64,000 bases of DNA from Heterodontus francisci. Its lineage: Eukaryota. The notes below the pieces were generated by a model. The model was not told the DNA's origin. It made no database searches and was given only the letters and a program-made list of their open reading frames with translations. Shown one piece after another: positions 35,917 to 63,974 of this stretch (position 1 is the stretch's first letter; each line of letters opens with the position of its first letter). Position numbers and translations under genes: made by a program. The stretch lies in the NCBI RefSeq assembly GCF_036365525.1, contig NW_027140807.1, forward strand, positions 1,364,001 through 1,428,000. Reading direction: 5' to 3'.

Positions 35917-35953
35917 ATTGAAATAATACTATCAGATTCAGTAACAGATACAT
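35917..35953 (-). pseudogene. TRBV: Orphan V leader exon MYLLLNLIVLFQ (family 1), no V exon
   Basis: 37-bp leader homologous to 57492-57528, donor gtaagg; no V exon downstream. Confidence 0.7.
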
Positions 35954-36569
35954 CTTCTACTGGAAGCTGTGTTTGTAATCTGTAAATCAGTGGAAACAAG
36001 AGCTTTGAGTCCTGTGAGGAGCTACATGAAGACTGAAGTAAGTGATTTGGTTTTCACAACTCCTTCCTCCCTGATTGGAAGCCACACCCCTGTCTCTCTG
36101 TTTGGCTGCAAGTATAAGTTGTTGTTGCGTTTGTTGCTCTTAGTCTCCTGCTGAAGTTGTTGCTGCATTTGTTGTTGGTAGTCTCCAGCTGAAGTTGTTG
36201 CATTTTTTGGTGCTAGTCGCCTGCTGAAGTTGCTGCTGCATTTGTTGGTGTTTTTTCCTCAAGTTGTTATTGTATTCGTTGGTGTTAATCTTTCTCTCTC
36301 CCTCTGTCTTTCTCTGTCCGTCTCTCCATCTCTCTCTCATGTCCCTTTAAGATCTTAGGATGCTAATGAGCTAAATTCCGGCACGTAGTCACGTGACTCG
36401 TAGCCAGTGTCACTCTGTAACTGGAACACCTACAGGCAGGTCCTGTAAATAGTTAGTTCAGTACTGTGTATGATAGTTCAGCTGTAAATAGACTTGTTTG
36501 TGATCTTCAACCAACTGGACTCCACGCTTCTCATTTATCTTGCATCACACACAACATTATGAACTCACA

Positions 36570-37235
36570 ACACTAACAGCTAATATGCAGGTGCAGCAAG
36601 CAATTCCGAAGGCGAATGGTATGCTGGCCTTCATTGCAATGGGATTTCAGTACAGGGGTAAAAATGTCTTGTTGCAATTGTATAGAACCTTGATGCGACA
36701 GCACCTCTAGTATTGTTTACAGTTTTGTTCTCCTTATCGAAGGAAGGATATACTTGCCAAAGAGAGAATGCAGCAGAGATTCACCAAAATAATCCCTGGC
36801 TGGGTGGGTTTGTCTGAGGAAGAGCGATTACAGAAACTGGGTCTGTATTCTCTGGAGTTCCAAAGAATAAGAGGTGATCGCATTGAAACTTACAAAATTC
36901 TGACAAGACATGACTCGACAAATGTCGATAGCGTGTTCAGTCTGGAATCAGGATACACTGTCTCCGAATAAGGTGCAGGCCATTGAAGACTGAGATGAGG
37001 AGGAATTTCTTTAACTAAGAGAGTTGTGAATCTTTGGAATTCTCTACCAAAGATGTCTTTGTAAGCTGACTGCATTGAGCATGTTCGAGACAGAAAGCGA
37101 TAGATTTCTAGATACTAATGACATCAAGGGAGATGGGGATAGTGGGGGGGAAATGACTCAGAGGTAGGTGATCAGCCATGAGTCGGTTCGATGTGCCGAA
37201 TGGCCTACTCCTTCTCCTATTCCCTATGTTCCTAG
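36570..37235 (+). mobile_element. CR1-type LINE 3' fragment
   Basis: degenerate RT C-terminus (QRFTKIIPG..GLYSLEFQRIRGD) and 3' tail. Confidence 0.8.
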
Positions 37236-37589
37236 GTTGTGTCCTGAATAAGCAGGGGGCAGGCTGTTGTCTGTTTGACGGTCCTAGAGCGCTCTCTGCT
37301 GTCCCTGTGGAGAATGAAGATAGTGTCAGGAGATGAAACCTAAATATTTTTAGTGATCATTCCTTCCTGATATTTACATCTTCTCAATTTGGGTCACATC
37401 CCCGTTAATCATTCATAGACAGACAGAAGGTTTTAGGGAACATAAGCAGGCTATTAGTGACATCTTTAACAGTGCCTCTATATTTATTCTCTCACTTTTA
37501 TTCACACGGGTCCCTTCTTATTGTCACAAACACCATCGCCCTGCACAAAAATCAAGTCTCTGTACAGCGCAACTTTATCTCCCACAGGT

Positions 37590-37815
37590 AGTGGTGGGAC
37601 TCTGGAGGACAATCTGTGAGTTCACATCTGGGAAAGAGATGGGTCGAAAATGACGCCAGGACACTCTGGATTATCGAGGAAGAAGGATGGAAGGGAGGAA
37701 TGAAAGCGTCAAGGAGAGAAGGAAATTATAAAGTAAAGAAAATTATTAAGCAGCATTATGTTTCATAAAGTTCCTTATGGTGGGAGATGGTCATCAGACC
37801 CAGTAACAGATACAT
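37590..37815 (-). pseudogene. TRBV: Family-1 V pseudogene with internal deletion (DVNSQIVLQSPTT only)
   Basis: leader MYLLLGLMTISH without donor; acceptor 37628-37630; V start fused directly to post-RSS flank. Confidence 0.75.
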
Positions 37816-61700: not shown

Positions 61701-62149
61701 TATGGAGACCAGCACTCTGCACAGCACTGCAGATTTGGTCCAATCAAGGTCGATGGAAACCAGAACTGTACACAGGGCTCCAAATGCGCACTAGGTAAGG
61801 TATTTGGATGTAAGAACTGTCCCCAGCACTTCAGATGTCGTCTACACAGGCATATGGAACTGAGAATTGTGCACAGTGCTCCAGGTGTGGTCTGACAGAG
61901 GTACGTGTTGAAGAGCCGTTCTATGAACCATTATTCAGGTGTGGGCACAGACAGTGTGTGTTGCCTGTCTGGAGGTTGTGGGGAGTTAGAACATGGGCGT
62001 TCTGCCACTCGAACGGGCACTGAACAGATGCAGATCCGCATCCGATCAGCCAGGGCTGCTCTTCACGGAATGCTGGGTTAAATGCACCCGTTTGAAGGGA
62101 GACGTGTGAGGGTTTTTGTCAAGGCGGCCAATGACTCTGAACCGCTGTG

Positions 62150-62883
62150 TCCCATCACCAGCTGCACAGAAATACACCGCCTCGTCCGTGGCGTTCACAC
62201 TCTCGATCGTCAGAGTGGATTTCTTATTGTTCAGAGTCCTGGTAATAACAAACCCGCTCTTAAATCCATCTTCATACTGAGGTTCACCTGCTGTATAGGT
62301 AAACCCGATTAACAGGAATCCTCCGCCGGGGGACTGACGATACCAGTACATGTAGTTGCGAACTGTTCCTTTCTGCAGACAGTTAATTTCCACGGGTCCT
62401 GGTTGTTTAACAGCCAGTGACTGAGGCCATTGATGTATCACATCACCCCGGCAAACACCTAGAAAGAGAAATTAGAGTGAATGAACTAGTATCGATGGAG
62501 TTACAATTGAGACGATGGACGTCGGTGTTGCACCAAATTAACGACGGAAATTCGGTCTGTGTCCTAATTTCCTGCAAGCACCTGGATCTTTACAACTGTA
62601 AAATAGAATCGTGGAATCCACAAGTTTGCAAGTGGGTGCAAACATTAAAGAGTTAACATCATATTAATAACACTTGTCTTCCCGAACTAGGGGACAGATG
62701 AATGAGTTCACTGTCTGATATGAAATAATCGATTACTGATTTCACAAGTCACCGCCGCTCAGTTTTATAGAGATTATTAATCATCCCTTTCAGTTAAACA
62801 AATGTAGAAGATTGATTGGGACAGAATTTTAACCTACTCAGCGCCAGAAGGGAAATAGCAAAGACGATGAAACTGAAAGACAT
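62150..62883 (-). CDS. TRBV: TCR beta V, family 3, apparently functional (leader 62838-62883 MSFSFIVFAISLLAL; V exon 62150-62458)
   Basis: IHQWP, C, WYRQ, YFCAAG; 23-RSS cacagcg 62149-62143, acaaaaacc 62119-62111. Confidence 0.92.
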
Positions 62884-63639
62884 GTTTGCTGTGGATCTGA
62901 GAGACTTTCTGCTGGTTACTCTGGGTTTTAAGGGAGGGAGAGAGATGAGGTGTAGGCAGAGCGGATCGTCATCAAAGGAAGTTATCTCAAGGCAATGATC
63001 CCCGCCCCTACCTTTAAGTTGTCCCCCATTCTTTTGTTTGCTTCCTTCCGCCCCTTTCCACTTGTTTCTTCTCTCCATTTCCCTCCTTCCTCCCCACTTT
63101 CTACTCTGCTGCCAATATCTTCACTCTCTTCCCTTTGTGAGCTTGCTTTCATGCTGAATCGAGGGAAATTTTGAAGGTAGCGAGGTGTTGGAGAGGGTAG
63201 GTGAAAAAAGCAAGGAGCGGTGCAACAATAGCTGCTTTGGGTGACTCCAGAGCTTATGGCGCACAACAGGGGATTATTAACATCCTTTTGCAAATTAAAA
63301 TCAGTAGTGGAGGAAGAGAAGGTGGATAGTTCGATGGCAGTGGCGGCGGCTCATATAACATCACTGTAAAGTGGAAATCTAACTGCATTTAGCCTTTAAA
63401 GTGAAAAGATTGCGGAAGCAGAGGAATTGACTCATTGATCAGCGGCGCCAAAGCCTGTGGTGGCGCGAAATATAGTGGAGCCACTGCGCCGACCAGTGGC
63501 AGCATGGTGCAACTGCAACAAGCTGTGTTTGTTACTTTCCCAGTGAAACCCATGCTGTGGGCTTCTTCAAGTCAATTCCCGAAATTCATCCTCCTTCTCA
63601 GTGTTTCATCCTCTCCTGCAGAGGATTATTACCCGCAGA

Positions 63640-63974
63640 ATTAACGATACAAATTCAGTCTTTGTCCTAATTTCCTGCCAGTATCTGTACAGATGTAAAG
63701 CAGAAGAGTGAAATCTACATGAGCAAAAGTGGGTGTAGATGTTATATGGTTAACAGTATATTCTTCACACTTTTGTTGCCAAAAAAGGGGGAACAGATTA
63801 ATGAGTTCACTGTCTTATATTCAATAATTGATTGCTGATTTCACAAGTCACCGCCGCACAGTCTTGTTGAGATCATTAATCAGTTGATCAAATGTAGAGC
63901 AGTGATTGTGACAGAATTTAAACATACTCAGCGACAGAAGGAAAATAGCAAACGTCGATGAAATTGAATGGCAT
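63640..63974 (-). pseudogene. TRBV: Duplicated family-3 leader + intron, frameshifted, V exon absent
   Basis: 63640-63974 parallels 62540-62883; 47-bp leader (1-nt insertion); homology stops before the acceptor. Confidence 0.75.

Follow-up and report, generated by a model that had tools for sequence, protein, structure and literature searches.

We examined a 64,000-nucleotide stretch of the horn shark (Heterodontus francisci) genome that carries T-cell receptor (TCR) beta genes (assembly GCF_036365525.1, contig NW_027140807.1, positions 1,364,001–1,428,000; hereafter the window). Its minus strand holds an array of variable (V) genes upstream of a divergent, broken second diversity–joining–constant (D-J-C) unit, which faces a working J–C-beta1 unit on the plus strand. 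We put the probability at roughly two in three that the intact V genes of this array still join the working unit by RAG-mediated inversion. From left to right, the window contains the plus-strand J cluster and C-beta1 (C1), then minus-strand C2, J2 and D2, and finally the minus-strand V array, which is upstream of its own decayed D-J-C2. The two V-D-J-C sets are in opposing orientation, tail to tail, with the 5′ V and D elements of unit 1 beyond the window. The inverted V array lies 3′ of C-beta1 on the opposite strand, a placement that depends on a run of N near 20.7 kb.

The extent of the array was defined by a strict scan of the whole window for recombination signal sequences (RSSs), with 200 shuffles as the null. 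Seven near-consensus signals with a 23-base spacer (23-RSSs) were found, with heptamers at 39210, 46633, 48942, 54585, 57072, 58679 and 62149. All are on the minus strand of 35917–64000; the plus strand of that segment has none, nor does the remaining window, and shuffled sequence gave a mean of 0.015 and a maximum of 1. Three remnants that lack an RSS (leaders at 35953 and 63974, and a leader with a 5′ piece at 37815) bring the number of V genes and remnants to 10. The initial annotation had described at least 10 minus-strand V genes or remnants from three families, seven with a 23-RSS and four intact, and both the RSS scan and the exon reading bear this out. The V genes combine a V-set domain with a 23-RSS, as looked for in a TRB locus.

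Nucleotide identity is 75–91% within the largest family (V39, V46, V49, V57 and V58) and 54–63% between families. Four genes retain a leader, splice sites, an open frame and an RSS: V39 (39172–39664) and V57 (57034–57528) of the largest, TRBV30-like family, V54 (54547–55418) of a second and V62 (62111–62883) of a third. Three further members of the V57 family keep the 23-RSS in a damaged gene: V46 (46595–46918) is frameshifted and has no recognisable leader, V49 (48904–49394) has a single in-frame stop and V58 (58641–58761) is a 3′ fragment. The RSS-less remnants, also on the minus strand, are an orphan leader exon of the V57 family (35917–35953), a donor-less leader followed by the 5′ piece of exon 2 (37596–37815) and a V62-family leader with no V exon found behind it (63929–63974).

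The minus-strand D-J-C unit that belongs to this array is decayed. D2 (32271–32351) has a 5′ 12-RSS with CAC, a 14-base core (32323–32310) and a 3′ 23-RSS whose heptamer reads TACCGTG, so the loss of CAC claimed in the initial annotation is confirmed. The single recognisable minus-strand J, J2 (31993–32069; coding 32041–31993), has a 12-RSS and the motif FGGR instead of FGxG. The Ig-domain exon of C2 (28191–28527) is a pseudogene with three frameshifts and one stop, in agreement with the earlier description of a disabled C; the remaining three exons are open, namely a hinge exon with a cysteine (25756–25773), a transmembrane exon (25483–25595) and a last coding exon with a stop (23201–23233) that can be aligned to the end of catshark C2. 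No chain can be made by this local minus-strand unit. CAC is kept in the 5′ RSS of D2 (32324–32351) and in the J2 RSS (32042–32069), and V genes could still be joined to D2 or J2 by deletion to give dead-end products. The 12-base spacer of the D2 5′ RSS (32331–32342, minus strand) is identical to that of the plus-strand J at 7065 (7046–7057), although the two units separated long ago. Another candidate D near 36.1 kb was dropped for want of an RSS.

The plus-strand unit, in contrast to this, is intact in its C gene. C-beta1 has four coding exons (12225–12575, 12896–12916, 14291–14397 and 15343–15369) and its protein is 100% identical to the constant part of the H. francisci RefSeq models XP_067882223 and XP_067882220 (P0002 and P0003). 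It differs by one to two residues from three further H. francisci models and at 2 of 166 positions from the protein of a complementary DNA (cDNA), AAA61563. This near-identity identifies C1 as a TCR-beta constant region, and all TCR chains among its top 60 PDB matches are beta chains. Upstream are 11 J segments (345–8876) with 12-RSSs, most with FGxG; those that depart from the motif are at 3392–3444 (FSDG), 6459–6507 (frameshifted) and 8826–8876 (SGGG). No D of this unit was found within the 64-kb window. The initial annotation had placed such a D with J and C1, and this part needs a correction: the window has only the J segments and C1, and the D is outside it.

Two questions about C2 are (i) whether it is a recent copy of C1 and (ii) whether related C regions occur in other sharks. 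A query of the 40 residues that end C2 exon 1 was run against a library of 1.84 billion representatives, one protein per 50% cluster. It gave 22 matches, for the most part long proteins of many domains whose scores come from repetition. Three single-stretch matches with open frames were found at 59–66% identity, two in the catshark Scyliorhinus torazame (XP_072356531.1 and GCB66422.1) and one in the whale shark Rhincodon typus (g47757.t1). The S. torazame entries P0141 and P0142 and the R. typus entry P0145 carry no annotation beyond "uncharacterised" or "hypothetical" protein. Nothing was found when the first 72 codons of C2 were used in a word-based protein search, which also missed the catshark proteins and so is insensitive. 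Over the whole constant region, the window C2 is 63% identical to catshark C2, 56% to whale shark C2 and 33% to C1; against five C-beta1 proteins it is 32–37% identical, and the open proteins of the two other species are 27–38% identical to shark C-beta1. The C1 and C2 groups separate at 100/100 in an 11-row tree that has no outgroup and no gamma or delta rows and that took the C2 hinge (5 residues) in the wrong frame. The class of C2, probably beta, is read from its four-exon layout, which is that of C1, from V-D-J with a beta-type V and from an atlas cluster name of TRBC2 at 0.95, with TCR chains absent from its PDB top 60. The whale shark model has no hinge exon. Judged by these sequence comparisons, recent duplication of C1 does not account for C2, which falls in a second shark C lineage, probably of beta class, with open frames in catshark and whale shark.

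As best we can judge, the minus-strand V array belonged to this old second locus, because the catshark gene model XP_072356531.1 carries a V57-family V (51–57% identical to V57 and V49) in one chain with a J and an open C2, and because a V54-family gene lies two locus tags away from the other catshark C2 model on one 216-kb contig. The proposal in the initial annotation that two facing loci have merged functionally is strengthened by the V57-family V-J-C2 chain as far as the two loci are concerned.

Evidence that the array is used comes from assembled contigs. Four runs, all of one sample, hold the C1 region; their status as RNA was guessed, none being recorded as such. Contigs were examined over 54300–63200, which takes in three of the four intact V genes (V54, V57 and V62; V39 lies outside). 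Contigs of run X1 cover exons of all three. One of them joins 57371 to 57492 and so omits exactly the predicted V57 leader intron (57491–57372), which has the ends CT..AC; this points to the presence of spliced RNA. A further joint, 54878–54965, disagrees with the predicted V54 leader intron. One X1 contig has a loose end at 62151, a single base within the V62 coding end; there, 13 letters are followed by the 17 opening bases of the plus-strand J at 1931–1980, the J with the best 12-RSS of its cluster (1903–1930). The 17-base match occurs once in the window and has no occurrence on the minus strand. This contig is a V(D)J junction of a minus-strand V type with a plus-strand J type. Given that there are close copies, and that the X1 contigs spanning V62 do not match the window throughout, the junction identifies the types that are joined and not the copy. 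The inversional joining envisaged in the initial annotation thereby gains direct though thin support, from one contig that connects V62-type sequence to the J at +1931.

The route that we favor would begin with D-to-J joining on the plus-strand unit, using a D outside the window. The 23-RSS of an array V would then pair with the 12-RSS of the plus-strand D, and the DNA between V and D would be flipped, with the signal joint staying on the chromosome as in mammalian TRBV30. Use with C-beta1 would keep the V genes and their signals intact after the death of C2.

Several observations weigh against inversional joining of the array itself. The junction is single, from 24 of 227 loose ends inspected in a single sample; it seems out of frame, with a reading uncertain by one base, and its contig stops short of C1. 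The C-beta1 unit is multi-copy: five RefSeq models (P0001–P0003, P0005 and P0006) match at 99–100% on contigs of four sizes (1.11–1.99 Mb), two of them share one 1.99-Mb contig, and their intron-derived parts are also 87–100% alike to the window. These models may represent a recent multiplication of the unit or haplotype duplicates, and multiple TCR-beta copies in horn shark were reportedly described by Rast and Litman in 1994. Across V62 the X1 contigs show a few mismatches to the window, which brings other copies or alleles into play. In other sharks, C-beta1 is joined to a V54-type V in RefSeq models from Mustelus and Pristiophorus and to a V62-type V in those from S. canicula and Heptranchias. 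If collinear, these suggest that direct-orientation members of the V54 and V62 families exist in those sharks, and they might in horn shark. Finally, the relative orientation of C1 and C2 hangs on one N run near 20.7 kb that is unspanned.

The copy number, the variant contigs and the models of the four other sharks are what would be expected if the expressed V62, V57 and V54 came from near-identical copies in the same orientation as some D-J-C-beta1, lying either in an array 5′ of it or beside a copy of the unit that points the other way, and were joined by ordinary deletion, with the array either a passenger or joined by deletion to another unit. We consider this unlikely, though it is the most serious of the alternatives: all three horn shark C-beta1 models with a V (P0003, P0005 and P0006) use instead the family of AAA61563, whose V family and J lie outside the window, and in bamboo shark the V57 and V62 families share one contig while C-beta1, with an AAA61563-type V, is on another. 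No horn shark cDNA with an array V gene was found, and the 120 best of 249 V-profile matches do not include a Heterodontus protein. The entry P0026 looks like a rearranged protein and combines a V of the V57 family with a C-beta1-type J. An assembly artefact at the 20.7-kb run, which no read or contig crosses in a region rich in simple repeats, could also generate a facing layout, but it strikes us as improbable. The window has 11 N runs of varying length (130 to 306 bases each), mostly within simple repeats, and the sole testable one, near 48.4 kb, has flanks collinear with an unbroken paralogous V57 unit, in which a short microsatellite occupies that position. Between 23 and 35 kb, neither the strand nor the order of D2, J2 and the four C2 exons changes from one side of an N run to the other, and in amniotes this V clade is as a rule inverted and placed 3′ (PMC11754216). 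We give very little credence to the idea that another copy of the unit retains D2-J2-C2 intact and is what the array mainly serves, with joins to plus-strand J segments incidental. C2 is open in two other sharks, and a library of one protein per 50% cluster could hide an intact horn shark C2; yet the only junction seen has a plus-strand-type J, and no Heterodontus C2 is among the four of 22 matches that were identified. On this balance, inversional joining of the intact V genes to the working J–C-beta1 unit remains our preferred reading.

Two tandem arrays of a 45-bp unit lie on the minus strand within or beside the V array, one at 35461–35837 (8.4 copies) and one at 54308–54526 (4.9 copies), just 3′ of the V54 RSS. 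They are ~70% alike, and single similar sites occur 300–650 bases 3′ of the RSS in four V57-family genes. The minus-strand cores of the units resemble the CTCF consensus and are candidate sites only; the second array has two perfect matches to the pattern. The pattern has 25 matches against 12.7 expected, a number reached in 1 of 100 shuffles and inflated by the tandem copies. Such arrays could steer loop extrusion toward the D-J side. Minisatellites occupy 28786–30099 (37 bp, in the J2–C2 intron), 44267–45636 (13 bp) and 45634–46077 (32 bp).

The V57 family also connects the array to the inverted V gene of mammals. In a tree of 32 rows hand-picked from the matches, with no mammalian TRBV30 among them, V39 and V57 form a clade (99/93) with V genes of sturgeon, tarpon, frog and tortoise, and V54 and V62 belong to other clades. 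Searches of PDB with V57, V54 and V62 as single sequences were dominated by tandem single-chain variable fragment (scFv) chains and did not assign families. A profile of 11 clade members, two of them from the window, had as its only single-domain PDB matches at 1e-28 the chain 5xov_J, which we take to be TRBV30, and the MEL5 beta chain. MEL5 beta is TRBV30 (PMC5887915). By profile similarity, the main V family groups with human TRBV30, a membership that tree and profile together give for V39 and V57 only, and the inverted V of mammals may be what is left of the second locus.

Mammals carry only one inverted V gene 3′ of TRBC (human TRBV30, mouse Trbv31). It resembles the shark array in being an inverted V with a 23-RSS 3′ of C, but the array spans at least 28 kb with ten genes or remnants from three families, and has its own decayed D-J-C2 between itself and C1. 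The comparison with mammals made in the initial annotation holds for the inverted position 3′ of C; its mammal-only framing is incomplete, inverted clusters in a newt having already been published. Pleurodeles waltl has three inverted TRBV clusters, mostly expressed, which rearrange by inversion, and multiple inverted TRBV genes are noted in alligator and axolotl (PMC12698447). The newt and axolotl loci are like that of the shark in having several inverted TRBV clusters, and each species has one divergent TRBC; their D-J-C units are in tandem, however, and the available text describes no inverted D-J-C of the V clusters’ own (PMC12698447, PMC12529555). Tuatara has five inverted TRBV genes, and the inverted TRBV clade is weakly supported and includes some non-inverted axolotl genes (PMC11754216).

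Opposed or doubled beta loci are known elsewhere. Salmonids and pike have two opposed V-D-J-C loci as in shark, and trout retains two inverted V genes as the remnant of a lost locus; those loci are head to head, with central V genes and near-identical paired C regions, whereas the shark loci are tail to tail with C regions 33% identical and one dead (PMC10464911). Channel catfish has two TRBC genes at 36% identity, with a deeply divergent second C as in shark, though in tandem and not facing (cited in PMC10464911). Squamate TRE also has a divergent second beta-type C, and its V genes are sister to the 3′-inverted TRBV clade, but it is unlinked and attributed to a squamate duplication (PMC11754216). 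The likeness of shark C2 to the catfish second TRBC and to TRE is one of divergence. Neither a shark TRB locus map nor a second shark C-beta is given in the accessible parts of PMC12529555, PMC12227049, PMC5931798, PMC10322711, PMC2192082, PMC6795676, PMC8455134 and the PMC3964593 supplement. In the other literature searched, in which coverage of subscription journals is thin and 8 of the 19 supplementary files of PMC10322711 fall outside, no second shark C-beta is described. The bamboo shark trb element tables of PMC10322711, a source available in part, may bear on prior knowledge of C2.

The mechanism of inversion is itself already known; what is new is a second shark C lineage, probably of beta class, that has open frames in two species and is dead in this window, with a V array that includes a TRBV30-type family. 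Many vertebrates have kept an inverted V 3′ of C in their beta and delta loci, with an advantage that is not clear, and the published origin of inverted TRBV is duplication and inversion of one V family (PMC11754216). A shark locus whose inverted V genes retain their own D-J-C offers an alternative to one V family having been moved and flipped. It is possible, and we hold it only tentatively, that the jawed-vertebrate ancestor had two facing TCR-beta loci with different C regions. Catshark and whale shark would then still make the second beta chain, horn shark would be midway, with C2 dead and its V genes recruited by inversion, and TRBV30/Trbv31 would be the last relic of the second V array. 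If this is true, the second locus, and not a set of separate duplications, could be the source of squamate TRE and of the divergent C-beta in newts and catfish. The open second C-beta of the catshark and whale shark gene models would imply a possible extra class of alpha-beta T cells in the oldest TCR-bearing lineage.
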